Of a DNA stretch of 64,000 nucleotides, positions 6,655-43,596 are shown piece by piece (position 1 is the stretch's first letter; each line of letters opens with the position of its first letter). This DNA is from Massalongia carnosa. Taxonomy: Eukaryota. The stretch covers positions 2,604,001 through 2,668,000 of the forward strand of contig OZ287070.1 of NCBI GenBank assembly GCA_965645245.1. The letters run 5' to 3'. The notes beneath the pieces were generated by a model that did no database searches, had not been told where the DNA came from, and worked only from the letters and a program-made list of their open reading frames with translations. The translations under genes were made by a program, and so were the position numbers.

Positions 6655-6814
6655 TGCTAAAATAATGGCTGTTAAAAATGGAGGTTTTCGCTGTTTAAAA
6701 CTCAGGCCAAGTCCTAACCTTAGGACAAATCGTGGCAATGTTAAACGTGGCTAATGGCGTCTCCAGAATTTAATAGAAAGATGAATTGATTGCAGATCAA
6801 TCCGGGCTCATAAC

Positions 6815-10305: not shown

Positions 10306-10439
10306 TGTCAGGCGATTAGGGGTCACATGACCCGCCATGGGTCACATGACCCACGAACCCCTATGAGATATCCCTCAGTTAGCTAGCCTAGACCTCCCAT
10401 AGATCAATACACACCACTCCTTTTCACCCATATTCCACA
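10306..10439 (+). repeat. Probable 3' LTR of Copia A
   Basis: Starts TGTCAGG right after the PPT and has two GGGTCACATGACCC palindromes. The end at TTCCACA is inferred because the partner LTR is not in the window. Confidence 0.6.
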
Positions 10440-20600: not shown

Positions 20601-22191
20601 GGCGGCATCGTCCGAAGGTCACGAGAAAATCGTGCAGTTGCTGTTGAACAACGAAGCGGACGTGAACGCGCAAGGCGGAGAGTATGGCAACGCGCTGCAG
20701 GCGGCATCGTCCGGAGGTCACGAGAAAATCGTGTAGTTGCTGTTTAACAACGAAGCGGACGTGAACGCGCAAGGCGGAGGGTATGGCAACGCGCTGCAGG
20801 CGGCATCGTTGCGAGGTCACGAGAAAATCGTGCAGTTGCTGTTGAACAACGAAGCGGACGTGAACGCGCAAGGCGGAGAGTATGGCAACGCGCTGCAGGC
20901 GGCATCGTCCGAAGGTCACGAGAAAATCGTGCAGTTGCTGTTGAACAACGAAGCGGACGTGAACGCGCAAGGCGGAGAGTATGGCAACGCGCTGCAGGGG
21001 GCATCGTTCGGAGGTCACGAGAAAATCGTGCAGTTGCTGTTGAACAACAAAGCGGACGTGAACGCGCAAGGCGGACACTTTGACAATGCGCTGCAGGCAG
21101 CATCGTGGAACGATCACGAGAAAATCGTCCAATTGCTGTTGAACAGCGGAGCGGATATAAACGCGCAAGGCGGACACTTTGGCAACGCGCTGCAGGCGGC
21201 ATCGTACGGAGGTCACGAGAAAATCGTGCAATTGCTGTTGAACAACGAAGCGGACGTGAACGCGCAAGGCGGACTCTTTGGCAATGCGCTGCAGGCGGCA
21301 TCGTACGAAGGTCACGAGAAAATTGTGCAATTGCTGTTGAACAACGAAGCGGACGTGAACGCGCAAGGCGGAGAGTATTGCAACGCGCTGCAGGCGGCAT
21401 CGTACGGAGGTCACGAGAAAACCGTGCTGTTGCTGTTGAACAACGAAGCGGACGTGAACGCGCAAGGCGGAGAGTATGGCAACGCGCTGCAGGGGGCATC
21501 GTCCCGAGGTCACGAGAAAATCGTGCCACTGCTGTTGAATAACGAAGCGGACGTGAACGCGCAAGGCGGAGGGTATGGCAACGCGCTGCAGGGGGCATCG
21601 TCCCGAGGTCACGAGAAAATCGTGCAACTGCTATTGAACAACAAAGCTGACGTGAACGCGCAAGGCGGAGGGTATGGCAACGCGCTGCAGGGGGCATCAT
21701 CGAGAGGTCACGAGAAAATCGTGCAGTTGCTGTTGAACAACGAAGCGGAAGTAAATGACAGCGCGCTGCAGAAGGCATGCATATATGGTCAAGCGAAGGT
21801 AATATAGTTGTTGTTGAAAAGTGGAGCGCAAGTTAACGACAAGTTGCTGGTAATGACACTGTCGGAAGGTCACATAAGGATAATACAGAACAGATTGGTG
21901 GAAAAATGGGAAATTAACGATATTGTATTACTGACTACATCATGGAGATATCACGAGAATGCAGTGCAGTTTTTGTTGAATAACCGGGTGAACGTCAATG
22001 ACAGCTCGCTGCATGCATCGAGGGAATATTACAAGAAGACGATGTAGTGGTTGTTGGATGAAGTAGAGAACATGAACGTGGAAGAGGATGAAGGAGAGAA
22101 CATAAACGTGGAAGACAGCTCGCTGCAGGCATTGAGGAAATCTCACGAGAGGGTCTTACAGTTGCTGGAGGCAGCCATGAAATCTTCCTGA
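17692..22191 (+). pseudogene. 5'-truncated NACHT-ankyrin NLR paralog (copy 1)
   Basis: Inverted copy of 25627-31086. Lacks the promoter and first 71 coding nt. Introns 18188-18241, 18924-18972, 19595-19646. In-frame TAG at 20734, 21805 and 22045. Confidence 0.93.
20554..21741 (+). repeat. Ankyrin array of copy 1: 12 x 99 bp
   Basis: Units [33 protein letters not shown] counted from the translation. Confidence 0.96.
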
Positions 22192-22873
22192 TATCAAGTC
22201 CTTCATCAATCATTATTACAACGGCGATGTTTCATATACAGTTGCTTTCAAATCAGTCTCCTATTTTCTTCTCGAGAGAAGTAGGCGCAGCGCGAGACAT
22301 TTTTTGAGAACGCAGGAGCTTGTAATTGAGAAATCCTAGCGTAGCAGATTAGCATTACTTTCCTATCGTTCGGCCTGCTTGATTTCTGGCCATTTCTCCT
22401 TGAAGGTTTATTTTTTTTCGCATTGAACTTTTCATGAGGACTAGGAGCAAAAGAAAGAGGCAGTTTTTAATGTTTTATCTAATGTAGTTCAGAAATCGAA
22501 TATAATAATTCGGCTAGGGCGAAAGGTAATGCCGGGACCGAGTGGAGGCAGGCCGTGGATAGCCGACGAAGGCCAAAGGTCGAAGGAGGACTGATGCCCA
22601 AAATAGTTGGACAAGCAAGGGAGAGAAAAGGGCATAAATAGGCCTTTTGGCACTCTTCTCCTCATCATCACCATTGATTCGGAGTTCAGCACCAAAAGGT
22701 CTTTTGCCCACTCACCCACTCCCTGAATCAGCCGCATAGGTAGATGGAGTTTTTCAGAGTTGCCCAAACATAGATAGAAATTATGTATATGTTCAGCTGA
22801 CACGATAGAGCCCGCGAATTACATATCTCTGGCCAAAATCGTGAGAGTTCGAGAAATCAATCTTGGAATTAAC

Positions 22874-24729
22874 GAAATGCTTAGGGACAGTCCCCCCCCG
22901 ACCGTCCCCCCCTCTGTGTAAATCTTTACTATTAAACAGCCATTTTACTACTCATCCAGGGTGCGTACAAGCTAGCAGTTACACTACGTATTAATAATGT
23001 TGCTATTACTGACTAAGTGTATTCAACACCTACAAATCTACCTATTGCGATGACTTCAACTCCAAAAACTCGTCAGCCAATTGCGATACATCATCTTTTC
23101 TAGGCTTCATGGTTTTAGCCACCTTTCTCATCGCCGTTTCCTTTCTCGCTTGAGCCCTAGCCTGTTTGACTGATTTCTCGACTCTTTGAGATTCCAACTC
23201 CAACTGAGCCTTTGATTTCTTCGCCACTCCCCGAGACCTTCGCGTTGTTGCAAAGGAAGTAGGGAGAATTTGACTGGCGCGCACGTTTTGGCTAAGACTA
23301 TAAAGAGATAGAGCCGGCGCTGTCTGAGGTAGGGCTTTTTGACTATGCTTGGCAAGCACATCGTCAATATCTTCGAGCGAATCCGACGAGGCTTCTGATT
23401 TAAGAATAACATCATTATCGTCATCAGAAGGAAGCACAGGATCCATAGAACGACCGAGAATGGGCTGAGTGCTTATATACTGCACCTCGTCATCGTCGTC
23501 GGAGACGATAGACGCGTTTTCGATTCTCTCCATAACTAAGTTTTCTCCTAAACCTATTGTACCCAATATTAGCCGACCCGAGAGCAATAACTTTGCAACA
23601 TCGTGAATTTTACCTTCTGTTTCACCTTTAACCTCATCGTCGCCCCCAGCACGCAATCTATTATATCTAAGCCTCCCCCCTTGTTCAATAGAGTCCCTTC
23701 GCCTAGTACGTCGCTGTTCAGTTTCTCTAGCCTCAGCTGCCTCGCGACCAGTGTAGGCACGTCGTTGATTCCCTCCTTTCTTATACATGAGGTTTTCTTT
23801 GGGCCGAATTTCGTCGGGGAATGTGGTGGGGATGAGAGGTCTTACCAGCTCCTTCTTTTGCCATTTCTTATTGAACTTTTCAACGATGTGAGCATGCTCG
23901 CAAGCGTACTCCTCCCTTCGATGAGAATCTTCTATTGATTGATGCAAGTCAATAGATTGATATGCCACAGAATGTAGCAAATCAAGGCCCCCGCGGCAAA
24001 ATCTATCCTCACTCAACACGCCTTCTTCGAGCTCGACCTCATCCTTATCCGCCTCAATTTCTCCCGTCCCTTCGACCTCATCGACGATCTTTTCGACCTC
24101 GGGCTCCGAGCCGCGAGCGAAATCGAAGGTCATTTGCCAAGAGACCGCATAAGGTGGGCCATCAAAAAACCAGCGGGGGTGGATGAGAGAAACGGGAATA
24201 GGGTCCGAGTCGATGATGCATTTATACAACCAGCATTTTCATGGGAGACCGTACCTTAAAGGCAAATCACAATGTTAAACACAGCTTCCACTATCAGGGA
24301 CAATAGAAAGGATTCGTTCAGCTAATGATTTGGCGGCATCGAGTTCTCTTGAAACGAGGCCAATGGCATGATGTGTAATTTTCCCAATGAGTAGCGTAAA
24401 AGCCATTTCTATCGATCAATCTAGGATTGCGTATTCGCTGTTGATTGCTCAAAATCTCCTGATATAATTCTTTTTTCCGCACCTCATCACATATTTTCTG
24501 CACCGATTGTCTTATAGGCAAGGGTAAATGGCAAGTGAGGGTGAGGGTGAAGGTATGCTTTATCAGACCGAGTAGGGTAATTATTAGTAGCAATAACACG
24601 TCATAGGATTTAAACCGAAAAGAGTTTAATGTGCTGTTGGCAGTTGGATTACTAGCTTGTACGCACCCTATATAAGCAGTGAAATGGCTATTTACTAGCC
24701 ACAGGGGGAGGACTGTCCCTAAGCACCTC
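22874..24729 (-). mobile_element. Internally deleted MULE between the two NLR copies
   Basis: TIR GAAATGCTTAGGGACAGTCC / GGACTGTCCCTAAGCACCTC plus inner inverted block GGGTGCGTACAAGCTAG. Encodes only the transposase C-terminus (LIHPRWFFDGP, PLIPTTFPDEIR), homologous to 38570-40140. No TSD. Confidence 0.85.
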
Positions 24730-25992
24730 GGTCGGTTTATTATGATTTGTATCGTTTGTGATCGGCTGCTGACTTGTTCTGCTTTCGTCTTTTCCTCTGA
24801 AGCATTGCCTGAAATGCAAATGTAACATCTTTCTCTCTTACTGAAGACAATATATTAATAACGATGAAGTTCGCATTACTCTCCGCTCCTTCGTGATTCT
24901 ACATATGATTTTCATCTAAATATCTACCGACTAATTTTACTCTTAATGCTTTAACTCCAAGATTGATTTCTCGAACTCTCACGATTTTGGCCAGAGATAT
25001 GTAATTCGCGGGCTCTATCGTGTCAGCTGAACATATACATAATTTCTATCTATGTTTGGGCAACTCTAAAAAACTCCATCTACCTATGCGGCTAATTCAG
25101 GGAGTGGGTGGGTGGGCAAAAGACCTTTTGGTGCTGAACTCCGAATCAATGGGGATGATGAGGAGAAGAGTGCCAAAAGGCCTATTTATGCCCTTTTCTC
25201 TCCCTTGCTTGTCCAACTATTTTGGGCATCATCCTCCTTCGATCTTCGGCCTTCGTCGGCTATCCACGGCCTGCCTCCACTCGGTCCCGGCATTACCTTT
25301 CGCCCTAGCCGAATTATTATATTCGATTTCTGAACTACGTTAGATACATTAAAAAATGCCTCTTTCTTTTACTCCTAGTCCTCATGAAAGTTCAGCGCGA
25401 AAAAAAATTAACCTTCAAGGAGAAATGGCCAGAAATCAAGCAGGCCGAACGATAGGAAAGCAATGTTAATCTGCTACGCTAGGATTTCTCAATTACAAGC
25501 TCCTGCGTTCTAAAAAAATGTCTCGCGCTGCGCCTACTTCTCTCGAGAAGAAAATAGGAGACTGATTTGAAAGCAACTGTATATGAAGCATCGCAATTGT
25601 ATTGGTGATTGATGAAGGACTTGATATCAGCAAGGTTTCATTGCTGCCTCTAGCAACTGCAAGACCCTTTCGTGAGATTTCCTCAATGCCTGCAGCGAGC
25701 TGTCTTTCACGTTTCTGTTCTCTCCTTCATCCAACAACCACTGCATCGTCCTCTCGTAACCTTCCCTTGATGCCTGCAGGAAGCCATCATTGACTTTCAT
25801 CCCGTTATTCAACAAAAACCGCACTACCTTCTCGTGATATCTCGATGATGTAGTCAGTAATACGATATCGTTAATTCCCAATTTTCCCCCCAATCTGCTC
25901 TGTATAATCCTTATGTGACCTTCCGACAATGTCATTACAAGCAACTTGTCGTTAACTTGCGCTCCATTTTTCAACAATAACTGCATCACCTT

Positions 25993-28900
25993 CTATTTAC
26001 CATATAAGCATGCATTCTGCATCGCGCTGTCATTTACTTCCGCTTCGTTGTTCAACAGCAACTGCACGATTTTCTCGTGACCTCCAGACGATGCCGCCTG
26101 CAGCGCGTTGCCATACTCTCCGCCTTGCGCGTTCACGTCCGCTTCGTTGTTCAACAGCAACTGCACGATTTTCTCGTGACCTCCGGACGATGCCGCCTGC
26201 AGCGCGTTGCCATAGTGTCCGCCTTGCGCGTTCACGTCCGCTTCGTTGTTCAACAGCAACTGCACGATTTTCTCGTGACCTCGCAACGATGCCGCCTGCA
26301 GCGCGTTGCCATATTGTCCGCCTTGCGCGTTCACGTCCGCTTCGTTGTTCAACAGCAACTGCACGATTTTCTCGTGACCTCCGGACGATGCCGCCTGCAG
26401 CGCGTTGCCATAGTGTCCGCCTTGCGCGTTCACGTCCGCTTCGTTGTTCAACAGCAACTGCACGATTTTCTCGTGACCTCGCAACGATGCCGCCTGCAGC
26501 GCGTTGCCATATTGTCCGCCTTGCGCGTTCACGTCCGCTTCGTTGTTCAACAGCAACTGCACGATTTTCTCGTGACCTCGCAACGATGCCGCCTGCAGCG
26601 CGTTGCCATACTCTCCGCCTTGCGCGTTCACGTCCGCTTCGTTGTTCAACAGCAACTGCACGATTTTCTCGTGACCTCCGGACGATGCCGCCTGCAGCGC
26701 GTTGCCATACTCTCCGCCTTGCGCGTTCACGTCCGCTTCGTTGTTCAACAGCAACTGCACGATTTTCTCGTGACCTCGCAACGATGCCGCCTGCAGCGCG
26801 TTGCCATATTGTCCGCCTTGCGCGTTCACGTCCGCTTCGTTGTTCAACAGCAACTGCACGATTTTCTCGTGACCTCGCAACGATGCCGCCTGCAGCGCGT
26901 TGCCATATTGTCCGCCTTGCGCGTTCACGTCCGCTTCGTTGTTCAACAGCAACTGCACGATTTTCTCGTGACCTCGCAACGATGCCGCCTGCAGCGCGTT
27001 GCCATATTGTCCGCCTTGCGCGTTCACGTCCGCTTCGTTGTTCAACAGCAACTGCACGATTTTCTCGTGACCTCCGGACGATGCCGCCTGCAGCGCGTTG
27101 CCATACTCTCCGCCTTGCGCGTTCACGTCCGCTTCGTTGTTCAACAGCAACTGCACGATTTTCTCGTGACCTCCGGACGATGCCGCCTGCAGCGCGTTGC
27201 CATACTCTCCGCCTTGCGCGTTCACGTCCGCTTCGTTGTTCAACAGCAACTGCACGATTTTCTCGTGACCTCGCAACGATGCCGCCTGCAGCGCGTTGCC
27301 ATACTCTCCGCCTTGCGCGTTCACGTCCGCTTCGTTGTTCAACAGCAACTGCACGATTTTCTCGTGACCTCCGGACGATGCCGCCTGCAGCGCGTTGCCA
27401 TACTCTCCGCCTTGCGCGTTCACGTCCGCTTCGTTGTTCAACAGCAACTGCACGATTTTCTCGTGACCTCCGGACGATGCCGCCTGCAGCGCGTTGCCAT
27501 ACTCTCCGCCTTGCGCGTTCACGTCCGCTTCGTTGTTCAACAGCAACTGCACGATTTTCTCGTGACCTCCGGACGATGCCGCCTGCAGCGCGTTGCCATA
27601 CTCTCCGCCTTGCGCGTTCACGTCCGCTTCGTTGTTCAACAGCAACTGCACGATTTTCTCGTGACCTCCGGACGATGCCGGCTGCAGCGCGTTGCCATAG
27701 TATCCGCCTTGCGCGTTCACGTCCGCTTCGTTGTTCAACAGCAACTGCACGATTTTCTCGTAACCTCCGGACGATGCCGCCTGCAGCGCGTTGCCATACT
27801 CTCCGCCTTGCGCGTTCACGTCCGCTTCGTTGTTCAACAGCAACTGGACGATTTTCTCGTGACCTCCGGACGATGCCGCCTGCAGCGCGTTGCCATACTC
27901 TCCGCCTTGCGCGTTCACGTCCGCTTCGTTATTCAACAGCAACTGCACGATTTTCTCGTGACCTCCGGACGATGCCGCCTGCAGCGCGTTGCCATAGCGT
28001 CCGCCTTGCGCGTTCACGTCCGCTTCGTTGTTCAACAGCAACTGCACGATTTTCTCGTGACCTCCGGACGATGCCGCCTGCAGCGCGTTGCCATAGTGTC
28101 CGCCTTGCGCGTTCACGTCCGCTTCGTTGTTCAACAGCAACTGCACGATTTTCTCGTGACCTTCGGACGATGCCGCCTGCAGCGCGTTGCCATACTTTCC
28201 GCCTTGCGCGTTCACGTCAGCTTCTTTCTTCAATAAAATCTTGATAATGGAAAGATGACCGTATCGACTGGCAATATGCAATAATGATTCATTTTTGTTA
28301 TTGTATGTGTCGACATCGAAAACAGCCATTTCCCACCAATCGAATATGATATTGTTGAATCCGAACGCTGATATTGCCAGTAAAGTTAATGTAGATGGAC
28401 TAATATTATCACAAACTTTATATACCAGACTAGTATGAAACACCTGCATATAATTATAATATCTCCTATTTTTGTCCTTTTCTATTATTTCATGCCAACT
28501 CTTGTACGCTGGGCTGCTTTCATTGAAGGATCCAAGGAATTGCTTCAAAATGGCCGATAAACGAGAATCAATCTTTTCTTTATCGTGGTTTTGTACGTGA
28601 TCTGCCCAACAGAATCTTGCGTAGCGAATAATGTCGTCGAGTTCTTTTTTTTCGTCTTGCAATTCGGTATCCCGTTTTTGTTGAACTGGATCATTCAACA
28701 AAGACAAACATACTTTCGCTATCAGAGCATTCGCACCATAGTATCCCCAGTGTCTTTCCAGATATTCTTGAACTGATAAGTGGGAAAATCGGCAGATATG
28801 AAGCTGAGAATCAACGACGATTATGTTTTGACAAGCGTCGAGAACAGAATCGATATCGACATCGACAGCGTCGACAACGTCCGTGTTGGGATCTTGACAA

Positions 28901-31157
28901 ACCCCAGCGACTAATGCTTCTGGCGATAAGGGGACTTTGGAATACATGATCCATTGAAATGCACGATTGGCAATTTCGGGCACACTTCCCTCTTGACCCT
29001 TAATTCTGCGATATATTTCGTCATATGCCGCATCAAGGTCCTTCGGAAGTTTGCCTAGTCGCTCTTCAATATCGCGTCTACGGGGCGGAAGTTTATGTAG
29101 TTGAATAATCTGCAGAGACGCCCACTGAAACCTATTCTACTGTTATAAATCAATGCTAGTGGCCGACAGTTATAGAAACTTACATTCCGTCACTTTTGCT
29201 CACCAAAGTCTCGGAGATGAGCTCTCTAAGTTCGGAACTTATCTTGCAATACCATTCCTTTTTATCTTTGATCTTATCGTCAACAAACATTGCTATGTCC
29301 TTCTCATTATCCGTTGCCCTGATTTCCATGTTTGGTCCATCACTAAATCGGTGTTTGATATCTAGGTCTGGCCTGCTCGAGATGAAAATTTTTACCAAGT
29401 TAGAAGACTTGCCGCTGACCAAGATGTCTAAACTTTCCATGAAAGAGGCCCTCGTTTCCTTGTTGCACTCATCTAAAGCGTCCACAACTAGCGTGATTTG
29501 GGGATAAATTTCAATCAGCTGAAGTAGAAGATTAAAACTTTCCTCAATCTTGAGCACTCCTGAGGCAAAGCCATTTTTTTGCTCTATTTCATACCTTTGA
29601 ACGATCGGACGTTGAATCGTGTTGCTGCTTTCGACTCCCGATAATTGCCGCACGAAGCTGCTCATGATCACTGCTGGGTCTTGACGATTAGGCTGATTGC
29701 GATCGCAATAAAAGTAGGCCAGCGCCTCGTCATTCGATTGCTGAGCAAAACTTTTAGTCAGATCATCTACAACTGTTGACACAAGTTTAGTTTTGCCAGC
29801 GCCAGCTGATGGACCCAGTTAGTAAGAAATGCTAGATATTGTATATACACTTACGCATTCCGTGCAGCCATAATATTGTAGATGCGCTAGACGCACGCCA
29901 TTTTAAATATCGGTCATGCTCCAGCAGCCAATTTCCTGTCCCCTTCGTCCATCCTTTACGAGCAACATTATGGATGCCCTTGTATGGAATGTCGGATATC
30001 CAAGAGAGTATTTTACTTCGCTTGTCCACTTCATATTCATCGCTCAAAGCACTCACTCGAGCATCGACGTGCAAGATTGGGCTTCGCAAGTCTTCAAATA
30101 AGCTCTTTAGCTTCATAATTGCCTCCCGATCTTGTATACGATCCAAATTTCTTGCCTCCCGATCTTGTATGCGATCCAAATTTCTTGCCTCCCGATCTTG
30201 TATGCGATCCAAATTTCTTGCCTCCGTATCTACTTGGGTTTCTAAGTCCTTACAACTCTCAACAAATTCGAGAACTTTCGAATGCAACACACTCCCCAGA
30301 GTTCGAGATACAGATCCTTTATCATATTCCTTCTTTGCACGGGCAAGGAATCTTAACACAGCGAGATACAAGTCTGTCAACGCCGTTTTCAAGTTCTCCA
30401 TTGCAAGTTTGAACGGTCCGGAGACATCCAAAGGAAGGTAAAGGAGTTCATATATTGTGCACCGATTGATAAGTTGCGTCACCTTCTCTCCGCCAATAAG
30501 TAAAGCTGCCATCAACTCGCTTTCTCCCACCGCCATCTTTTCCAGAGTTAGGTCTTTTCAAGATCATGTGAAAGGAAGATCCAATCTCACCTGAAGCAAA
30601 AACCTGACTCCCGCCCATGGCAACGCAGCATGAACGGGATCAAAATTTACCGCCACGTCTCCAATTTCCTTGAATTTGTTGAGTCCAAAGATAATTTTCT
30701 CCGCTAAATCGCGAAGGATGATCTCTTGGCCTTGGAAACGAAATTTCCATTGTTTCTCGCGGCATTCATCTCGTTTCTGCTGAACAACACCGTGTAATTG
30801 TTCCACGATCTCTAGTTTCGAATTCAAGGATGTCTGTTGAACAGCCGCTCTCTCCTCTAATGATAGTTTCTGTAGCGTAATGTCCCAGAGACTACTCTGA
30901 ACATTTAGAGCTTGCGCACCCGCTGAAGAAGATGTTTTGATCGATCTCGCCTCTTCAGTTGAATTCGGAACCGATCCGGAGCCCGTGTTCACCTTGACAG
31001 CTGATGTCGGAATAGAGGCAGAATCAGGTTTCGTTGATTGTGATGTGGAAGATCCTTGCACTGAAATTCCACACGAGTCCTGTTTTGCCTTACTAGCCTT
31101 GTGACTAAACAAGGCCCTCAATCGCTCCCGTTTCCTTTCACGCGGAGAGCTTTCCAT
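25993..31157 (-). CDS. Fungal NLR: N-terminal helical (NACHT_N/Goodbye-like) domain, NACHT, ankyrin repeats; about 1669 aa
   Basis: Exons 31157-30591, 30536-29855, 29805-29184, 29131-25993 total 5010 nt in one open frame. [16 protein letters not shown] in the N-terminal domain, Walker A HGMPGAGKT formed across intron 2, Walker [34 protein letters not shown] at 25993 removes about 120 codons of degenerate ANK tail (to 25627). Confidence 0.9.
26047..28224 (-). repeat. Ankyrin array of copy 2: 22 x 99 bp, near-identical
   Basis: 22 units counted from the translation; variation is almost confined to three codons per unit. Confidence 0.97.
30120..30224 (-). repeat. 33-bp x3 in-frame repeat ([11 protein letters not shown]) before the NACHT domain; same repeat at 18554-18659
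   Basis: GAGGCAAGAAATTTGGATCGCATACAAGATCGG three times in both paralogs. Confidence 0.95.
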
Positions 31158-32199
31158 CGAATCCTGCACCAAATAATGATAGTTGTAGACTAAGGTATTG
31201 CGCTGGCAACAGCAGACTCCTCAAAACAATGCTGAGGTGTACTGGTGGTCAAGAGAGAGTAAAATTTCTCCAAGACAGGTGGGCGCTGCCTTTTGCTTTC
31301 TTATGCACTGATTGGTCCAACTCGTTTCACCCAATGCATCTAGGCGGCGTACGTAGTTCAGACACGTCATCGCCAATGATCTTCGAGGTAGATAAGATAA
31401 GGCAACATCCTTCCACGAGTTTAACGTTCATCAAATCCATAGAATAGAACTAATGATTCAACTTCTCCGAATATGCATGGCGTGTTCTAACGCTGCTGTG
31501 AGCATCGTTATTCGAGAAGTCGGCTACTACGTCAAGCACTACTCTCTAACCCTGAGGATTCTTCCACAAGATCATAATCGAGTTAAACTGGAACGAAGAC
31601 ATTTTATGTTATCAGCACTCCATCAAGTCCATCAAGTCCATAGAATAAACTAGTACTAATGATTCAACTTCTCCGATTATGCATAACGTGATTCTAACGC
31701 TGCTTGACGTGGAAGCCGACTTGTCGAATAACGATGTTCACAGCATCACTCTTCTATGAGCACTAAGCATTTGCTCACTCTGTATCACAACTTTCACGTT
31801 CTGTGCGCGACAGCTCAATATCAAAAGAATGCATTCTGCTTTTAAAGTATATTATGCTTTATTAGAACTGTGAAATGGTAGCACTGGCAATTGATATGAC
31901 TAGGGTAAAACTGCTCCTATTGATGCCGGTCCCACCAGCAATTCCAGAAGCCTCCATTCCCATCTCATCGGCTGTCTCTTCCGATGCGATTTCTGACTCC
32001 ATGCCAATTTGCCACCGCCACAGGTCATTTCTTGCCGAGGTAGATGCAAATTGCTTTGTCAGCTGGTTTCGGTATTTGGCATCGGTTGCCCGTTTTAACA
32101 CATTACACATAACTCGGTGTTAACTTTCGATATCTTTTAGGTTAGGTGATTTTTGACGCAATCCTTGTTTTACTGAAAGAGAAAAGCAAAACAACGTGA

Positions 32200-35100
32200 A
32201 TGCATTTAGAGCAGCGTGGGAAGCGAGCCTCTCGGATCCTCGAAATTCGTCGACAGAGCCCCGACGTTTCTGCCGGCCGGCTGACATGCGACGGATTTAT
32301 CGCCTGGCTGCAGCGTCTGGGGCTCAAGCCGCGCTCCATTCGATCGTGGAGTGATAGCGAGCCGACTGGTAAAGGAACGTATTTCTCCGTCTATCGGCAG
32401 CAAGTGCGCCCCGTCAATTACCAAGCGTTGCATTTGATCATCTTTACTGGAGATCTTCCCCGAAAATCGACTCCTATGTCGCCTTTAAGCGGATGGTTGT
32501 TCGCAACCAAGCCTCGCAGGAGATAGACGATCAAGGACAGTTGTACGCCATCTGCCGGGAGATTCAGGCACTCATCCATCCCGCGCTCCGTGAGCATGAG
32601 AGTATCGTGAAGCTGCAAGCGATCGTTTGGGAGAACAGGTTTGGCGCAGGGTATGAGAGCGGAATGCCAATGTGGCCGACGCTTGTGCTAGAATATTGCG
32701 AGACGACTTTGGCCGATCATCAGACAAACAACCCTCCAATCGATGCCACGGTCAAAAGTATCATCGGATCAAAGATAGGAGGCGGCTTGGATGCTCTGCA
32801 TTCCGTGGGGATCTTTCACCGTGACCTGAAAACCGAAAACGTTTTACTCAAGATTGGGGATGGAGGAGCGTTGGAGCCAAAGCTCGCTGACTTTGGTTGT
32901 TCGGCGATAATCGAGAAAGGTGATGGCAAGAAGAAATATTGGATTGGTGGAACATCCATGTGGCGCGCCCCAGAGGTTGTCATCTACTCTACTGTAGGGT
33001 TTTGAGATTAATCTGACGTTTTCGAGGCGGCCAGTGCCCAGGCTATTTCGAAATGTCGATGCAATTGCCGCAACCGACTGGTATTCTTTTGGACTGCTGT
33101 TGTGGCGCCTCTCGATAGATGGCAGAAACCCAATGGACGAATGAGAAATCATACCGACGGAATGGTCTCAGGAAGAAAGACTGTTAGCGATGCAGTTTCT
33201 GAAAGACACCGATTGTCTTTCCGCTCTCCTTGGTGACAGCACTGCGCCAGACAACTCTTTGCCCCTTAGTCGTTTACTAGCGAGCCTTTTGCTGAAAGAC
33301 CCCATAAAAGGGCTAGAGGCTATAGAAAAATCCACACTCGAGGTTGTACCGTTCCTATCGCAAAATGCCCGTATGAATCGAGACCGCGAATCGGATCTCG
33401 AATCAGATCCTGTCCGTCTGCAATCACAGAACGAATATTTAAACGTTATCGAGCAACTTTCAAGTCACCATCGTAGCAGCAATTCGGAATCGTCAGGGGA
33501 AGATGAGGAAGAGCCGGATCTTCTAAATATCTTTTCCTTCTTCTCATCTACAACTTCGAAAAGTGTAGTTCCCAACTTCGTGAGTGACCTCAATCTTTGG
33601 TGTATGTTATGGTGACTTTTTTTAAAATTAAAAACGTGGTCTCATTGTTTCCTTATGATTGGCGATTTTGACGCTTAAAATAGATACCCCTCTTTACCAC
33701 GGGGCGTGAACATGCGCTCAACTCAGCCACGCGTTCTCGATTAACTCAGGAACTCCTATCGATATACGAAGATGACAACGGAACTGAACATCTTCACCAG
33801 TGCCTCGAGTGCAATTCTTTGAGTAAAATAGACATGGATCCGCATCGATTGACGCATGACGCTTTGATTAAGGAGTTACAGCAATGTAGCGAAAGTTTGA
33901 AACACACTTGCTTAACACAGCCATCACAACTCAGTTCAGCACTTATCAAGTCAGCAGTTCCACGAGCTCTACAAAATCTTACTTCATCCAAAGCCGTTCT
34001 TCGAAAGGGTGAGGCGGCCTACCAACTCTTTTTGACCACTATCTCAGGATTCGGCATCAAGAGAGATATTGCTCGTGCTTTTAAGTTCCTCGAAGATGCT
34101 GCCATGTCCGGAAGTCATTACTGCTGTGTTTGGCTCTGCCGACACTCGTTGTTTATAAATCGGGATCTCTCCCCTCAAATACCTTTTCGAAAATGGCTGG
34201 CAATAACCGTGTTGTTTGCAGCTGGCATTCCATCCGAGGCTTACCTCGCCTTAGTAGAATTAGATCCCATCTTAGCCAGAATAGTAGCTGTGGCGAGAAG
34301 TAAAGTCTACAACGGCTCTACGGCAAGCTTTGTAAACACGAAATTCAACGCCGTTTGCGATTTGTATGAGACGACCTCGGATCTGTCAATGCAATTTTCC
34401 CCGATGGCTGATGGATCATCTGCAAGACAGGACAAGTCTTTTGAAAACACGTTATTGCATTTAACCGCTGGATCGGAAAACTCCAACACATCAGTCCTGG
34501 AATACTGCACTTCCGTCCTGAAAATCGACAAGAACGTGCGGAACACCGATGGAGTGACACCATTACTCATGGCTTGTCGTGCTGGGAGGGAGGAGAAGAT
34601 ACTGGCACTGCTGCACCTTGACGTAGATGTCGATTTGGTTTATGCTGGCGGTGAAACTCCGCTGCACTAGCTTGGCTTTTTGCCGGACCCCACACGAGTA
34701 TTGGAAGAATTCCTCCTACGCGGTGCCGGTATCAATGCGCAAGTAACTCAAGAAAGGGCGCTACCAAGTTTTCTTGGCGGGTTGAAAAGTTTCTATGTGA
34801 AATGACCTCCTCTCAACTGGGCAATGGCTATGGGAAATGAGATATATGTAGACGCTCTCTTAAAAAAAGGGGCGGATATCAATATGCTTGTTCTTGATAA
34901 AGTAATGCTTGTGAGATTTGCTTGCTTCCCTAGAAGATCGCAGTTCCTTGACAGGTTTTCGAGACAACCGGAATTTAAGGTTTCTAGAGAAGGATGATCT
35001 GTGAATACTGAATAATTATGCCAAACCCGAAGAACATGAGAGGGCTCTTAAGCTACTGTTGTCGACACCCATTCCGTTCCGTGATTGGGCTGAAGTCGAT

Positions 35101-36208
35101 GCTTTTTATCAATACCTTGTCTCAGAGGCTGTGTCTGAGTGTCGGGGAGAAATCCTAGAAATTGGACTACGGTCTCAGCATGAGCATGGCGACTATAAAA
35201 GACACAGATCCAAGCAGCTTTAAGCACGCAAAACTTCCGCTCTCACATCCAGCTTGAGTCGAACATCACCTAGTTCACGAAGCTGCAGTCAGGGGTGATC
35301 CTGAAATTTTACACATCGTTCTCGACTACGGGGGTGACGCAACCAGTATGGACGGGTTTCAACGGAACACCTAACATCTATTATCAGTTTTCTCGAATAA
35401 CGCGGAGTCAGCCGGTATCCTTCTCGACCACGGTGCTCATTCTCTCCTAGGCCGCAGGACTGAGTTGGATGGCATGACTGCATTTATGACGGCAATGGCT
35501 AACTGTAATTTCGCAGTTGCAGATCTTCTTCTTCGCAAAACCCCTAACACCGAGCGCCAGACTTTACTCTCAAGCCGTCCGGCAGGCATGGCCTTTGCAG
35601 AGCTATCGTTGTTCGGCCACCTTATCGCTTGGTCGACGACTGTGAGCGAGAAGCCGGTAGAGTACCTCTGCAGCTTGCCAGAAATCCGAGAGACCTCGGA
35701 TTTGCTTTTTATCGTAGACGAGACCAACAAATACTCCGCCCTTATGATGGCCTGCGGTATAAAATCCGGTGGAGGCATACTCGACACGGGACTATTTGTT
35801 TGTTCTCGGAGGAGAAGGACCATCAATCTGCTGCTGCGCCAATTTCCCAAACAGCACCATATCGACAGTAGAGATAATCACGGCAACACTGCACTTCATC
35901 TTGCAGCCTTTTTAGGAAGCAAAGACATGGCAACTGCGCTTCTGGAAGCCGGCGCAAACCCGAATCTTCTCAACTCCTCAGGAGCCAGCCCCTTGGATGT
36001 TTTGTTTGTCTCTGATCCCTCATACTTCTGGGGAAATCGGGCTTCAAAGAAATTTTTGGTGGAGTGTTTTGAAGCTGGAAGAAACGATATTTGCATGCAG
36101 TTGAGGAGTAAAAGTGCAACGCATGCACTTCCTCTGGCAGTGAAGAATGCCTGGGCTACGCACTTACCTTATCCCTGGGTTCGAAAAATGCAAACATTGT
36201 CCCCGTGA
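32200..36208 (+). pseudogene. Protein kinase + SEL1-like repeat + ankyrin repeats gene, disrupted
   Basis: GKGTYFSVY, VAFK, HRDLKTEN, DFG, WRAPE, DWYSFG. SEL1-like AAYQL..GFGIKRDIARAFKFLEDAA. ANK motifs GVTPLLMAC, GETPLH, GNTALHLAA. In-frame TGA at 33142, TAG at 34668, more lesions at 34800-35460. Start codon and exon limits are approximate. Confidence 0.85.
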
Positions 36209-36433
36209 AAGTGCCTTGCAAGCCAAACCGAACAGATTGTTGAAGTGAATTAATCACTTGATGCATGTACGAGTATTTTTGAAGAGAATAATTTTGATTG
36301 TTGTCTATCGTGGGTGTTTTATGAACATCCATCAACTAAACTACCCTTAGTCTATTCTGGTCAAGCAGTCATCAATTACCTGACCTTGTCTATTAGATTA
36401 ACACGTTTTAGTATAATATCAACACTGATAATC

Positions 36434-38251
36434 TCACGCAAAACATCTACCAAGCTTGTACACAACGTCAAAAAGAAAAGAAGCTTGGGGGAAGTCTTCT
36501 GCCTCAAACTCACTCATACGAGTACCCTGCCCTACCGAGTCGTGTTCAACGACTCGACCCGTCAAACAAGTTTCGACCACTTCTTGATATATTTTGCCAC
36601 ATCTGGACCAAAGGCTTTCTGCACACAAGAGAAAGCGGTTTTGCCAGACTTGGGGCTTTCTTGAGTCCCTGTATTTATCTGGCTGGGCCCCAATCAAACT
36701 CCAGTTACCAATCTCGAGAAGCACAACTCCGAGCGCATAGATGTTGTACTGTTTGCGGAATCGCGGCGAGGTCGGAGAAGTATCAGACGGCCACAAGGAC
36801 GGGTGGCGGTAATCGTTGCTGCTTCGGTCCAAAGGATTCTCCAGCGAGGGTGTGGTAGGGCGGTCAGGACGCGAGAAGTCGAAACCTAGCAGGAATGGGT
36901 GGGATGGATCGAGGTCTGAGGATGATGAATAAGTCTGCGACAGGCTGAAAAGAACATTTGATGAACTGACTGCTTTGTGAAGCCAATCATACGCATGAAG
37001 CTGAAGAATGATATTACAGAGAGCCGTAGCAATCTGGAACCGATCACCCAGGAACGGAGGCGTCGTTGTGCCATTTATGTACTCATGGAGAGAGTAAGGG
37101 CGAGACGATATTGATGTTGGCAATGCAGCGTTTGATGGTTGGGGTAGTCTTGACATAGCTAGAGGCCTAAACAGAAGACCGTATCTCAATAGACTTTTCT
37201 GCAAGATACTTCGTGTCTTTGAAGTGACCAATGCATCTGAGAAGCCCGAAATCGGCTGATCTCTCCGAGCTAAGTACCACAGCAAGCGTCTTGATGCGCG
37301 ATCGTATAGTTTCCATGTCATTGAAATTTAATGATCGGTCCACATATCTCCATTCCAGAATCGCGGGTTCATGTTTCCATCCGCCCTTGCGACTGAGGCA
37401 ATGAATCTATTCTGGCCGGCTTTCTTGGTATCTCCAGACTTGAAACTCACCAAATCCGTCACACTAGTTGACAATAGCAGAAGTTCATTTGCAAAGGATG
37501 GACTCGACTCGTTCATCACTGCGGTTAAGGCAGCTCGCCTCAGATCTGCGCATGAAGCGAGCAACTCAGTTGTTTTGTTCCGTTTCGCGTTGTTCTTCAC
37601 TTCTGACAGCGTTGCTTAATCCAAAATCCCCGGAAGCACCACAGATGGTAAACCCTTTGCCAGCGCAATCCGCATGTTTGCGGGCAACGCAATCCACAGG
37701 CTCTCATTCAACAGTCGCAAGTCATCAACAAGTCTCCTAAGCTTGACGCTGTCGCTCAGTGCCCAACGGAGCTTTCCTAGCCGCGATGTTGAGACTACGA
37801 TCGAACGTTCCATCGTCGTCCGTTTGACTTCCGCAATATTCACCGCGGCACAGCTGCGTATATCGTCCAGATTCAGATCCTGAAGCTCAATCATTGGATC
37901 TGGGCTTGAATCCTGACCAGCCTCGCAAATTCTGACCCCATACCGAATCATGATTAGGTCGATGTCGTCCAAAAACAATTTGATAGCGTCGAAACGCGCA
38001 ACAACGAATTTCTGCGTCTCGTACGATTCTCTCAATAGCAATTGGCACCCCTGCGCCTGAGAAATCCCAAGATATCTACCCCAGAGCTGCAGCCTCCGTC
38101 TCTCAACTTCAAGCTGCACACCTAGTAGATGTGCGTCTTTGCAGATGTCATTTGCAGATCGGATAAAAACATCATACGCTCTATTGCAGGTCTGGAACAG
38201 AGAGAGCAGGCTCGCAAGACCTATGCCTCCGATGATAAGTTCCACCGGCAT
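36434..38251 (-). pseudogene. HeLo-like domain + pseudokinase gene (MLKL-like architecture), disrupted
   Basis: Hydrophobic N-terminus MPVELIIGGIGLASLLSLFQTC, LEVERRRLQLWG, LRWALSD..LRRLVDDLRLLN. Kinase-like part RFQIATAL..LHKAVSSSNVLF, LLGFDFSR, YRHP, IYALGVVLLEIG. In-frame TAA at 37616, frameshifts near 37370 and 37190. Confidence 0.85.
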
Positions 38252-38380
38252 TGTGAGCCAGAGAATACTATGAAAGAAGAAAGTGAAGTCACAAATAATC
38301 AAATAATCATCCACTTCTCCTTCTGACGAGTACGCTACTTTCGATTATCAACAAGTATTATTTCTGGCTAGTTCATGTGC

Positions 38381-41300
38381 GAGAAGACTCGGGACAGTCC
38401 CCCACCGTCCCGCAAATTAGGACTAGCTACAAGCCACCTCCCCATACTAAATATGTGCACGTCCACCGTCTCTCCGCAAGCTTCCTCTAGCTGATTTAGC
38501 TTAGCCCCGCATTCTGAAAAATCCTCATCTATTCATACTACTACTATTACTACTACTCCTACCACTCATTGCGATGATCTCAATTCTGAAAATGCATCAC
38601 TCAATTGCGAAACATTATCCTTTCTAGGCTTCATAGTCTTAGCAACCTTTCTTGCAGCTGCGTTTTCCTCTCCTCAGCCCTTGCTTGTTTGGCCGCTTGG
38701 TCGGCCCTCTGCTGAGACTCCAACTCCAACTGAGCCTTCGATTTGTTGGCTACCACACCCTGTGACCCTCGTGTTGTTGTTGCAGACGATGTGGATGGTA
38801 GCTGGCTAGCGCGGATATTTTTTTGACTGAGGCTATAAAGGGAAGGAGCTTTTGGAGAGGGAACCGTTTGGGAAAGAGCCTTTTGGCTATGTTTCGCCAG
38901 CACTTCATCAATATCTTCAAATGAATCCGAAGAAGATGCCGGGGATGGAGGGATAAAATCATCGTTCTCATTCAGAGAGAGTGGAGGATCGGGGGTAGGC
39001 TGAGTTGCTATATATTGCAGGTCATCGTCGTCAGATACGATGATAGCATCTCCGGAATCTATACCTAATATTAGCCGCGCTACATCGATCAATTTGCTGA
39101 TATCGTGGGTTTTTTATCATAATCATACCCTTGTCTTCACTGCCTGCCCGCAATTCATCCTCATGCCTTCTTCTCCTCCCTTATTCAATCGAGTCCTTAC
39201 GTTTAGCACGTCGCTGCTTAGCTTCATCTGCCTCAGCTGCCTCACGGCCAGTGTAAGCCCGCCGGCGACTCCCACTCTTTTTATACATGAGGTTGTCCTT
39301 CAGTCGGATTTCGTCGGGGAATGTTGTAGGGATAAGTGGCCTCGCCAGCTCCTTATCCTGCCATTTTTTATTGAAAATAGCAGTGAATTTGGCGAATTCA
39401 CGAGCGTATCCCTCCCTTCTATGCACATTTTCTATTGATTTATGAAAATTAATAGATTGATGCGCGGCCGCATGCAGCAAATCAACACCCCCGCGACGAA
39501 ATCTATCCCCAGTATTATTGTCAACTGCCTTCTCGATCTCCTCTTCCAGCTCAGATTCTTGTCTTTGTTGAGCATTTCCCCCCTCATCCACCTCCTCATC
39601 CTGCTCTTCTGTGTTCTTCCTGTGAGCTGCTCTCCGAAACATCTCAGCGAAATTTATGGTGGGGTCGAAAACCATTCTCCACGAGACCACAAAAGGCGGC
39701 CCATCGAAAAACCAGCGGGGATGAATGAGGGGAGATAGGTATGGGGATAACATCAATGACGCAACGATACAACCAGCATCTGACGGAAGACCGTATCGTG
39801 GAGGCAAATCACAATCATGCATACAATCCTCACCGGTTGGTTCGATTAATGCATCCCTTCAACTCCAAAGAAACCTGTTGATTGAAATCTTCGGCTAAAA
39901 GTTTAGCTGCATCCAACTCTCTAGATATGAGATCAATAGCATGATGACTTATTAAACCTATAAGGTCTTTAAACGCACTTCTATCCATTAGCCGGGGGTT
40001 GTTGATTCGTTGATGATTGGTTGATATTTCGTAGTCAACCTGAACCCTTTGCACTGTTTCGCATATTTTCCGCACTGAGTCCTCAATAGGTGTATGCCTA
40101 TTTGTCACATTCTTTACCAACGGATGCAAATCTTCCACCCTTTGTGTGCTATGTGCACCGAAATTAGGGAACTTTCTGGTGTATGCGGAAACAAACTGAC
40201 ACTCCTGACGTTGATAATAGCTAGTAAAATACTCCTGGAAATAGGAGTGAGTTAGCCCTAATCAACGTTTTTTGATGGCTTCATACCTTTTCTGAAGCAT
40301 GAAGCTTCAATATCAACGCGTTTTTCTTCTCATCCAGCTGTTCAACGGTAGGAGTTTTGATCCACTCCTATATCAATTCATGCAGCTCTTTCCGTACTTC
40401 TAAAGGATATGAACCCGCCCTGATCAGGGGTTTCTTGATTGCCTCCGCTGCGTGCCACGTGCATAATTGCAACACACAATTAGGGTCGGTTTCGTGTATT
40501 GATTGGGCGACTTGCCATGCAACGGTCATTGCTGCATCCGGGTTTATTTCCTTAGCCCGTTTTTTAAGCATCTCTGCAGTCAATCCAGCGGCGAAGTCTC
40601 CGAGGATGACCCTAGGATCAGGACATGTATCATGAAAAAAGAGATCTTTCATACAATCAAATAGAAACGTAAAGCACTCAGCCGATTCGGAAGTTATATA
40701 ACAATAGGCCGCGTTGAAAGTCTGATTTGTGTTGGTGATGCCAACCAACACCGATAGGGGTAAGTTCAACTGATTTGTATTGAACGTAGCATCCATTTCT
40801 ATTAAGAATCCACTGACGAATCGTCTAGTCAGTCGGATCTGTTCAGCGTTACGGAAAAAGAAATGTTCAACAACACGTCTTCGGGGAGTATTGTTTTCAA
40901 CGAGATATTTCTCCAAAGTCCGTACATGAAACCCTTCTTCTTCTAGAAATCCAAGTGCATAGGTCAACTCTTCTTCAGGTGTATGTTTGCCCTGGGATCG
41001 AGCCAGGTTGTAATAGTCCTTCTTCGAAAGGCGCAGGCCAGTCATTCCCAAAACGCGAGATGCTTGACCGTATCTAGTTGATGCATCACGGAGACTTTTG
41101 CTTGATCTAGAGCAGTTGCTCGATCGAGGTCTTGGCTACGATGCTCTTTGAAACCGAAGGGGTCTGTAGCCATCTCGTGATTGTGATCAGGATTGGTGCT
41201 GATTAATCTCCACGATTCGTCTTTATCTTGCTTCAGTCTTAGTCGATATTTGCACTCGTTGAACGAGACCTTCGTGTTTTTTCGTACGCGGTCCTTCTCC

Positions 41301-43596
41301 TCTAGCTTTCTAGTGCTTCCTTCTCTTTTGTGATGACGGGTGCAATCTAACGTAATTTACCCTCATTCGGGTCAGCCCCCCATTCGGGTCAGCCACCCAA
41401 TCGGGTCACCCCACCAAAAAAAAAAACCTTCGCCCTACACCAAAGAAAAATATTACATTGCTTCCACCATCCCCAAAGCTAACTAAAAACATCACTATCC
41501 ATCTGCATTTCCTTCCATACGGCCTTTGCGAACTTTACTTTACCATTTAAAGCATGGTACCGTTCCTTTTGTTTGGCCAATGCTTCTTCCTTCCTCTGTT
41601 TTTCCTCCGCAATCGCCTGCCCTTCACCCACAGTTAGCACCCTTGCTTTAACACCCCCCTTTCTGGATGCTTTTTGACGTCCCTGAGCCTTTTTATCAAT
41701 CAGTTCTTGATTGGTGTGTCTTAGAATAACCCTATCAGCGACGGCATTCAAAGCAGTTGTTTTAAGCAACTCAACATGCGCGCGAAGAGATGGAGTTATA
41801 CAGGATATAAGGGCATCGCTGACTTCCTGGATTCGCTGCTCCGTTTGGGGGGCATCGGTGACGGTGTTTGGATAGGTAGGAGGTGTGATAGGCCTAGGCA
41901 ACTTGCCTAGAACATGCCCTGGATTAAATGGGATGAGGCCTGCCCCCCGCCATGCACTCATGATGTTAGTAGTAGTAATGGCCTGTTTCCTAGCCACCTG
42001 AATAAGGCACAAAAAATCTAGCTTAGAAATAGTCACAGCCCCGTAACGTGATTGGCTGGAAACGAGTTGTTTATAGGCCTTAGATAAAGGGCCAAAAACA
42101 CCGACATCCAGGGGCTGCAATAAATGAGTTGAATGTGGTGGCAAACAAAGGGGTATGATTCTCTTGGGCACAAAACTCCATAAAAGGAATGGAGACGTGA
42201 CTCTCATGGCCATCTACAATTAGCATCCTATACATGCCTCGTTCAGGTTTTGTATGCTTATTGAACACCGTTTGCAACCAATGAAGGCCTATCTCCGCAT
42301 CCGTCCAACCATTGGGACTGACCCGAACGGTATCTGCCTTCGTCTCCATGGCATCATACCATGCAGGTTGAACTTGGGCACCTTGGAAAATGATATAAGC
42401 CGGAAGAACTGTTCCGCGGGATGATATGCACTCAATAAGAGAAACCCAGTCCCTATTTCCCGGGTGCACATTGAATGGTGTTGTTGTTCCTTTGATTATG
42501 ACCTTCGAACTGTCTGCGATGCCCATAGCAAAGCCTTTTTCATCCATGTTGTAAGTATCTTCATCTGAAATCCCATATTTGACCAAGGTGCTCGTGTACA
42601 ATTCGAACCAATCACGCAAAATTTCGGGACTACCAGCGTTCTTTCTGGATTTATCGAGGTTTCTATTGTATTTGATTTTGAAATCGGGATGCCTTTTCAG
42701 GAACTTTTGATACCAATGACGACCCAACGGATTTTTGTCCCCTTTGGCGTTCAGGAGACTTCTGGCCATGCCTTCCAAATGTTGGATACGAGGCGGCCAA
42801 CCCCATGAGGTCATCCGCTCTATCCAATCAATCAGAGCCTGTTCTTCGTGGACGGATAGCCTTTGGGCGGCTTGATGATAGTGTTTTGCGGCCCGCCTGC
42901 CTTTGAGCCGGGCCTGTAAAGTCGACTGAGGAACTCCGTAAAGGCGCGCTATTTCCCGCTGCGAAATGCCCGGATTTTTGGCTAATTCTTCGATAGCCAA
43001 CTGTAATCTAGTAGCAGAGTCAATTGTAGGCATATTAATGGACATTTTATCTACAATTAATAGATAAATATACGGTGGTGGTGGATAAACAGGATAGAAT
43101 TTTTTTCGGTCGCTAGATTTTAATGGGGTGACCCGAATGGGGGGCTGACCCGAATGAGGGTAAATTACGTTAGTATAACGAGATGATTCTTCTTATCATT
43201 AGTCTCTGTGACCAATGCAAAGCCTTGAGTAAAGGCATAATTCTGAAGGCGGGTTTTTCCCTCCTCCCAGGAGATAAAGATTTCACTCTCACTCGGAGGA
43301 AGACGATGAGACGATGGTAAACTCGCTATAGCCCTTTGCAATCGTGCATCCAGGGACGTTGATGTGAGGGCCATAGCAAAGAAAAAGATAAGGGAGAGAA
43401 GAAGTGCGGTCTACCTATCATAGTGATAAATTTACATAGAGGGTTGGCTGCCTATACCTATAATATTATTAATAGAGACGGTGAACGAGGTATATGTACC
43501 TAATTATTTAGTATGGGGAGGTGGCTTGTAGCTAGTCCTAATTTGGAGTGATTTTCGCTAGGGGGACGGTGGGGGGGGACTGTCCCGAGTCTTCTC
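38381..43596 (-). mobile_element. MULE DNA transposon, degenerate, with nested pogo element
   Basis: TIR GAGAAGACTCGGGACAGTCCCC / GGGGACTGTCCCGAGTCTTCTC. Transposase from ATG 43374 (FTQGFALV..VILDCTRHHK after removing the insert; MDATFNTN, ILGDFA, LCTWH) with stops and frameshifts. No TSD. Confidence 0.9.
41350..43170 (-). mobile_element. pogo/Fot1-type Tc1-mariner element (1821 bp)
   Basis: TIR ACGTAATTTACCCTCATTCGGGTCAGCCCCCCATTCGGGTCA, TA TSD (41348-49, 43171-72). Transposase 43045-41479 with HTH, YNMDEKGF, IVDGHESH, LQPLDVG and one frameshift near 42160. Confidence 0.96.

Follow-up and report, generated by a model that had tools for sequence, protein, structure and literature searches.

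The question raised by this stretch of Massalongia carnosa DNA (64,000 nucleotides (nt), positions 2,604,001 to 2,668,000 of contig OZ287070.1 in assembly GCA_965645245.1, hereafter the window) is whether three neighbouring genes, between positions 25627 and 38251, work together in a single cell-death pathway. The initial annotation had arranged them as receptor, kinase and executioner: a NOD-like receptor (NLR) with a NACHT domain and ankyrin (ANK) repeats, a gene encoding a kinase followed by ANK repeats, and a gene joining a HeLo domain to a pseudokinase. Based on our analysis, the block is better described as an ordinary NLR neighbour next to the remains of a conserved module of two genes, kinase-ANK and HeLo-pseudokinase, that would work like RIPK3 and MLKL. 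We give this reading a probability of roughly 0.55.

The layout of the block held up well. Pfam searches located the NACHT-ANK, kinase-ANK and HeLo plus pseudokinase domains at the places and on the strands first described. The NLR is head-to-head with the kinase gene, with about 1.04 kb from ATG to ATG, and the kinase gene is tail-to-tail with the HeLo-pseudokinase gene, with 225 bp from stop to stop. No transposon coding sequence lies between the three genes. The kinase gene had been described as a kinase-SEL1-ANK fusion, of which the kinase and ANK parts were borne out and the middle part proved weak: Sel1 (PF08238) gave no match in the window at E≤0.01 and none in 10 close homologues at E≤1. 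A Sel1 match was seen in one distant locus, L016 (E 2.1e-5), at 25.4 bits, which is under the cut-off of 30.7. Both kinase-type genes had been reported as broken, and the damage turned out to be heavier than that report implied.

The kinase-ANK gene is a pseudogene on the plus strand. Its kinase part (32200-33615) was delimited by a three-frame read, by tblastn with the homologous kinase P0034 (407 amino acids (aa), 46% identity) and by Pfam, which gave a Pkinase match at 32373-33005 (E 2.4e-22) followed by ANK-bearing open reading frames (ORFs) as far as 36208. The linker and ANK part (33684-36208) was traced by codon reading, by a hidden Markov model (HMM) of alignment A2 and by tblastn with P0023, an 849-aa ANK homologue that is 49-53% identical to the window; the ANK proteins used as homologues measure 800-870 aa at 45-50% identity. 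Between the two parts, an intron would be expected near 33615-33684. The Gly-loop of the window kinase is read in one frame, and the series VAFK...HRD...DFG...APE in another. Four frameshifts (~32385-32440, 32978-33070, 34990-35029 and ~35175) and at least five in-frame stops (TGA 33142-33144, TAG 34668, TGA 34803, TGA ~35255 and TAA ~35372) interrupt the gene, and two of these stops, the TAG at 34668 and the TGA at ~35255, replace conserved Trp codons.

The HeLo-pseudokinase gene (36434-38251, minus strand), delimited by Pfam and alignment A1, is likewise a pseudogene. The HeLo domain (PF14479) matched at 37616-38344(-) with 78.4 bits against a cut-off of 23.2 (E 8.4e-22), and DUF7580 (PF24476) matched at 36434-37327(-) with 27.7 bits against a cut-off of 27 (E 2.6e-6); homologues carry both PF24476 and PF14479. 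The window is fungal: the nearest named relative of this protein is from Oidiodendron maius, and one of the runs with near-identical DNA is labelled a lichen metagenome. Alignment A1, with seven relatives, places a Gln in the relatives where the window has TAA (37616-37618). One nucleotide is missing near 37371 and two near 37183, which shifts about 65 codons into the wrong frame; a second, apparent TAA at 37328 falls in this stretch, where the true frame is that of the ORF at 37167-37406. The lesions of this gene thus total one stop and two frameshifts. At the catalytic motif positions the window protein reads HKA and GFDFS.

Whether these lesions exist in the organism was judged with contigs from four related runs, which belong to three studies and are about 97% alike to the window. 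The related contigs have CAG at 37616-37618 and carry an additional T at 37371, TC at 37183, G at 32996 and G at 33052. Because they lack these five lesions, the five are private to the window strain or to its assembly. The breaks could on this evidence be assembly errors, with both genes intact in the real organism, the more so as four of the five are 1-2-nt indels of the kind typical of long-read error. However, contigs only ~97% alike come from other strains and so provide no check on this assembly. The difference between TAA and the related CAG needs two substitutions, the kinase-ANK gene has five in-frame stops that arose by substitution, and the adjoining NLR and its three introns are clean. 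The related strains are not free of indels either: runs X3 and X4 and part of X1 carry a 4-nt insertion at 35544. We regard an origin of the breaks in assembly error as very improbable. Both genes of the pair are broken while the neighbouring NLR, in the copy described below as copy B, retains its frame and splice sites, a pattern of co-decay. The pair genes are dead in this strain, so the module is inactive here. Repeat-induced point mutation was considered as the killer of these copies and was dropped, the changes between the window and X1 being balanced (A>G 59 and T>C 68; C>T 70 and G>A 72).

The evidence for a conserved module comes from other genomes. JGI metagenome contigs were scanned with an alignment of the ANK homologues, which gave 21 loci, and these were analysed further with tblastn, Pfam and HMMs. 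The Pfam survey covered 89 ORFs of at least 170 aa in 15 loci at E≤1e-4; L005 and L006, near-duplicates of L004, and five kinase-less loci were excluded from it. In 16 loci (13 after merging L001 with L007 and L004 with L005 and L006), the ANK part is directly preceded by a kinase on its own strand; the loci named with this order are L001-L013, L016 and L021. The kinase-ANK fusion is real, since a single 1198-aa ORF in L003 (1573-5166) contains both Pkinase and ANK, and since the kinase and ANK ORFs of L012 are in the same frame with 6 nt between them.

A HeLo-DUF7580 gene directly adjoins the kinase-ANK gene in five of the seven non-redundant loci with 5 kb or more of flanking sequence to one side or the other. 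The two genes are head-to-head in L001/L007, L008, L011 and L012, and tail-to-tail in L004(-6), where the gap is 227 nt compared with 225 nt in the window. Proteins from the distant loci are ~25-35% identical to those of the window. At this level of identity, and with differing orientations, the linkage has persisted through considerable divergence and one or more rearrangements. The other neighbours change from locus to locus and include CBM_21, GST, ferric reductase and glycosyl hydrolase 47 genes.

Several of these loci have features of their own. L004 packs a HET-domain gene, two kinase-ANK paralogues, an ANK-only gene and a HeLo-pseudokinase gene into 3161-16477, and has a DUF7791 fragment at 1713-2297 that may belong to an NLR. 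On the short contig of L003, a second kinase of the same family (53-1204, HMM E 4e-77) is head-to-head with the single-ORF kinase-ANK gene. In L008 (2565-5710) and L010 (5392-6642) the kinase is split over several ORFs, as is the HeLo-pseudokinase gene of L008; these may be decayed copies or intron-rich genes.

The NLR fared differently. Within the survey just described, no NACHT or NB-ARC domain turned up in the 13 non-redundant kinase-ANK loci, and tblastn of the window NACHT against the 21 loci matched only L014, L015, L017, L019 and L020, all of them kinase-less. Because the HeLo gene adjoins kinase-ANK in 5/7 loci and NACHT/NB-ARC does so in 0/13, we conclude that kinase-ANK and HeLo-pseudokinase form a conserved two-gene pair, and that the NLR is a bystander to this pair and not a partner. 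How often orthologs are adjacent had been put forward as the check on the proposed trio, and in the metagenome loci it came out in favour of the pair and against an NLR beside it. The single cascade from NLR through kinase-ANK to HeLo-pseudokinase does draw on the fact that all three genes adjoin one another, and on the description, in the available part of one review, of fungal NLRs as often encoded beside their effectors (PMC12881547). In addition to the missing NACHT at other loci, however, the window NLR has an N-terminal domain of its own, and its location is very recent, the gene being part of an inverted duplication whose arms are 99.6% identical. Furthermore, the HeLo protein ends inside its kinase fold, which leaves no room for the C-terminal prion-forming motif of an amyloid-signalled pair (the NLR N-terminus was not searched for such a motif). 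We therefore consider the three-gene cascade highly improbable. Its second half, the step from kinase to pseudokinase, fared better, with conserved linkage and with predicted catalytic states in its favour; the phosphorylation itself is what we infer from these.

These predicted catalytic states come from the alignments of the two protein families. All the catalytic motifs are retained in the kinase family: GxGxxF, VA[LF]K, the alpha-C Glu, H[GR]D..K..N, DFG and APE. In alignment A4, with 12 sequences, E190 is invariant, D276, K278, N281 and D298 are at least 90% conserved, and VA[LF]K is present in most members. The family mostly has HGD and is thus mostly non-RD, and its kinase is predicted to be active. 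The ANK domain has a mean column identity of 61% (alignment A2).

The HeLo-pseudokinase family presents the opposite catalytic state. Among 150 of its cluster representatives, the position of the HRD Asp is G in 77, A in 23, S in 22, N in 16 and D in 9, so that the Asp is missing in 141/150, and the position of the DFG Asp is Gly in 149/150. A model of P0002 (pLDDT 69, pTM 0.74) predicts helices over residues 2-246 and a complete kinase fold over residues 250-605, the latter matching MerTK with Z 22.4 (rmsd 3.1, 276 aligned residues) and BRAF with Z 20.8. With the family profile, the N-terminus matches HET-s HeLo chains (E 1.9e-14), and the C-terminal domain matches BRAF (2.4e-6), IRAK4 (1e-5) and MLKL (2.3e-5). 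With single sequences, the only solved kinase-type matches of this domain at E<0.01 are the LIM kinases (LIMK1/2) and MLKL, which are tied, MLKL having E 1.5e-3 to 7.5e-3. As modelled, the protein would have the layout of MLKL, a helical killer domain followed by a catalytically dead kinase fold. The layout is MLKL-like; by sequence and structure, the family may or may not group with MLKL over other kinases.

Taken together, these features suggest how the module might operate. Gene A would supply a predicted-active, mostly non-RD kinase, a linker (with a Sel1-like repeat in one relative) and a long ANK domain. Gene B would supply an N-terminal HeLo membrane-attack domain and a kinase-fold domain devoid of catalytic residues, arranged as in MLKL. 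The ANK part of A may restrain the kinase or sense a cue. Once released, kinase A would bind protein B and phosphorylate the activation segment of its pseudokinase, and B phosphorylated in this way would free its HeLo domain to permeabilise the membrane and kill the cell, following the logic of RIPK3 on MLKL.

The same linkage evidence would be expected if the two genes were coupled in some other way. The pseudokinase could be a decoy or sensor of the kinase-ANK protein in a guard/guardee relationship, the genes could serve allorecognition as a het-like pair, with HeLo killing set off by mismatched alleles, or the kinase could restrain the killer. The HET-domain gene and the two kinase-ANK paralogues beside the HeLo gene in L004 are consistent with such arrangements, as are lesions that vary between strains, a typical feature of immune or incompatibility genes that can be dispensed with. 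The ANK domain, however, shows good conservation and not the hypervariability often found in sensors and het determinants. The evidence at hand does not separate these arrangements from direct activation. We consider a coupling of this other kind unlikely.

A number of points weigh against a RIPK3-MLKL-like module. The HeLo-DUF7580 gene is absent at L009 and L010, two of the seven assessable loci. The linkage sample is small, since these seven loci were picked by ANK similarity and two near-duplicate groups had to be merged, and the linkage may hold for only some of the very large HeLo-pseudokinase family, which has 2894 cluster representatives at E≤1e-30. For closer homologues, the evidence of linkage is indirect and consists of HeLo-pseudokinase and ANK proteins from contigs of identical size in bp (P0009/P0026, 34650; P0010/P0029, 49163; P0015/P0033, 4959). 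An identification of gene A as a RIP kinase was rejected: RIPK1 is the top solved match for one of three members only (L012, which also matched MLKL; P0034 found MAP4K4, and L003 found IRE1/LRRK2), and the family profile places GCN2 and LRRK2 ahead of RIPK1. MLKL was also rejected as the closest structure to the pseudokinase, as it is not among the best 50 matches from Foldseek or VIA-align. Finally, fungal immune-type genes cluster, as the HET gene and second kinase-ANK paralogue of L004 illustrate, and the linkage could in part reflect such islands rather than coupling.

Taken to its end, this last point yields an explanation without any direct function, in which fast-evolving kinase, ANK, HeLo and HET genes arise by local duplication and travel together in islands. 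The additional kinase paralogues of L003 and L004, the loci that lack the HeLo gene, and the state of the window, which is a graveyard of duplicated and broken genes, would all agree with it. Against this, the pair genes are immediate neighbours in 5/5 positive loci and in the window, in two orientations and at ~30% identity, and the remaining neighbours differ between loci. Adjacency by co-travel is to our judgement improbable, and we continue to favour a kinase-ANK/HeLo-pseudokinase module with RIPK3-MLKL-like logic. A broader form of this proposal, namely that ascomycetes carry a widespread, linked, necroptosis-like switch in which an active non-RD kinase-ANK protein phosphorylates the adjoining MLKL-like HeLo-pseudokinase, is advanced tentatively, as a possibility with less than an even chance of being right.

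The bystander NLR is present in the window in two copies. Copy B, the one next to the kinase gene, was delimited by Pfam, splice signals and tandem-repeat analysis and occupies 25993-31157 on the minus strand, from an ATG at ~31157 to a TAG at 25993-25995. Pfam on stop-to-stop ORFs gave NPHP3_N (E 1.4e-24), NACHT (E 2.3e-6) and Ank_2 (E 1.8e-208); at the N-terminus, DUF7708 scored 27.1 bits against a cut-off of 25, and NACHT_N just 16.5 bits against a cut-off of 30. Three introns (30590-30537, 29854-29806 and 29183-29132) have the canonical signals GTGAGA..AAAAG, GTAAGT..TACTAAC..CAG and GTAAGT..AATAG, respectively. All three restore the frame, and splicing rebuilds LHGMPGAGKT, with the Walker A motif GMPGAGKT, and SDGMFQWASLQ. 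Copy B thus combines an N-terminal domain, an NTPase with Walker A and C-terminal repeats, as expected of a fungal NACHT-ANK NLR. Its ANK array comprises 22.2 units of 99 nt with 97% matches, and its sole defect is the TAG at 25993, within the last ANK units. Beyond this TAG, an ANK-like tail of 121 codons (25627-25992, minus strand) is open in frame. The corresponding tail of the other copy, copy A, has stops at different codons, and for this reason the tail is probably not under selection and lies beyond the functional end.

Copy A (17692-22872, plus strand) is an inverted duplicate of copy B together with the 3' flank of copy B, the inverted repeat pairing 17692-22872 (+) with 31086-24951 (-). 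The non-repeat parts of the copies differ by 12 mismatches in 2854 nt with 0 gaps (99.6% identity), and the duplication extends over 22086-22872 against 25732-24951 at 95.6% identity. Copy A is truncated at its 5' side, the cut falling 23 codons past the ATG; additional in-frame stops are found at 20734-20736 and in its tail. Its ANK array has 12.2 units against 22.2 in copy B, with a uniformity of 91% against 97%. The resulting palindrome is near-perfect with a unique spacer of ~2.1 kb, and may be real or an assembly join of two haplotypes. The spacer (22873-24950) contains ORFs at 23045-24238(-) (398 aa) and 24321-24854(-), neither of which matched Pfam at E≤0.001. Within the NLR N-terminal region, 3.2 units of a 33-nt sequence are repeated in tandem at 30119-30225 (also 18553-18659); contigs of runs X2, X3 and X4 lack 66 nt at this repeat, and the number of units therefore varies between strains. 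Overall, the NLR is of the ordinary all-in-one fungal type, with a NACHT_N/DUF7708 N-terminus, NACHT and highly uniform ANK repeats, recently duplicated within a decaying, transposon-rich region.

The intergenic region between the NLR and the kinase gene (31158-32199) contains short direct and inverted local repeats at 31426-31745. None of the listed related contigs spans 31.3-32.1 kb and so bridges the NLR and the kinase gene; these contigs are short, and nothing follows from the missing bridge. In the related runs, 31670-32343 has raised summed contig depth and many contigs that diverge into unlike sequence, which suggests a dispersed repeat or a breakpoint. The initial annotation had transposons flanking the block. 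This is correct further out, where Pfam identified MULE transposase fragments at 12.6-13.4 kb and 40.4-41.1 kb and a DDE_1 element of Tc5/pogo type lies at 41.5-43.2 kb, but the immediate left flank is the inverted, 5'-truncated NLR copy. Transposable elements occupy 1-10039, 11548-13359, 40371-43192 and 57456-64000 and comprise copia-type elements (RVT_2, integrase and gag), the two MULE fragments, the Tc5/pogo-type DDE_1 and a long interspersed nuclear element (RVT_1 and endonuclease). A heavily fragmented reducing polyketide synthase, with KS, AT, DH, ER and KR pieces, lies on the minus strand at 43503-53596; its remains are split by a DDE_1 transposase ORF at 50150-51517, and a P450 fragment is found at 55700-56200. 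This region looks like a dead secondary-metabolite cluster.

With respect to novelty, the HeLo-pseudokinase architecture is already known, and the pairing with a kinase-ANK gene appears to be undescribed in the literature searched. The main texts of that literature describe no pairing of HeLo-pseudokinase genes with a kinase gene, do not say what activates the many fungal HeLo-pseudokinase proteins, and do not contain the term 'DUF7580'. The portions of PMC10197012 and PMC12258605 available to us contain nothing on kinase-linked HeLo proteins, and a 2025 review, as far as its accessible text goes, urges broader study of fungal HeLo and four-helix-bundle proteins (PMC12881547). If the proposed module is correct, phosphorylation would join amyloid templating and proteolysis as a third kind of signalling in fungal cell-death gene pairs, and control of a helical-bundle killer by a kinase through a pseudokinase would either predate the split of fungi and animals or have arisen twice. 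The pair thus allows one to ask how far back the control of MLKL-like killers by phosphorylation goes. The conserved neighbouring kinase is a concrete candidate activator of fungal HeLo-pseudokinase proteins, and the dead copy in the window is of value because it points to the pair and illustrates loss at the level of the strain.

The module can be compared with several known systems. It would resemble MLKL/RIPK3, by analogy, in having a helical-bundle killer with a dead kinase fold and a separate, catalytically competent kinase as its proposed activator, and MLKL chains are among the few solved kinase-type matches (E 1.5e-3 with a single sequence). It differs in that the fungal partner genes are adjacent and in that the fungal kinase carries ANK repeats and is not specifically RIPK-like. 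The tetrad [IV]Q[IVL]G, which we take to be the core of the RIP homotypic interaction motif, occurs in 0/15 of the kinase, ANK and HeLo-pseudokinase proteins (11094 residues). Animal RIPK4 and ANKK1 share the order of an N-terminal kinase and C-terminal ANK repeats, and are the nearest non-fungal Atlas clusters (score 0.94-0.95). These look-alikes measure ~750-800 aa compared with 1200-1450 aa for the fungal proteins (the ascomycete Pkinase plus ANK clusters of the Atlas are 1338-1369 aa), sequence comparison gave no grouping of the fungal kinases with RIP kinases, and the likeness may rest on architecture alone.

Closer parallels are found within the fungi. HeLo is regarded as a relative of the four-helix bundle of MLKL, and some HELL domains are reported, in the accessible text of the same review, in proteins with a kinase or pseudokinase domain, reminiscent of MLKL (PMC12881547). 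The HeLo-pseudokinase family has this same architecture, with Pfam HeLo plus DUF7580 and with Atlas clusters so named in Ascomycota. The account of HELL-kinase proteins in that text names no upstream kinase and no gene pairing (PMC12881547), and the conserved kinase-ANK neighbour is what our analysis adds. The window NLR belongs to the same class as fungal NLRs with uniform ANK repeats, and differs just by its recent inverted duplication. The accessible parts of two papers describe T-NACHT/ankyrin NLRs as frequent (PMC12258605) and Goodbye/NACHT_N domains as MLKL-related NLR N-termini (PMC9815663). The kinase-ANK/HeLo-pseudokinase pair is also like NWD2/HET-S and PNT1/HELLP, which signal by amyloid, and HET-Q2/HET-Q1, a protease with a gasdermin, in that an executioner gene stands beside its activator gene. 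The likeness to HET-Q2/HET-Q1 goes further: where protease-repeat/gasdermin gene pairs are described, in the text available of both sources, the activator is an enzyme and is often fused to ANK, TPR or WD40 repeats (PMC12881547, PMC8851545). In contrast to the amyloid and protease pairs, the pair described here has no prion-forming motif and no protease, and the signal passing between its two proteins would be phosphorylation.

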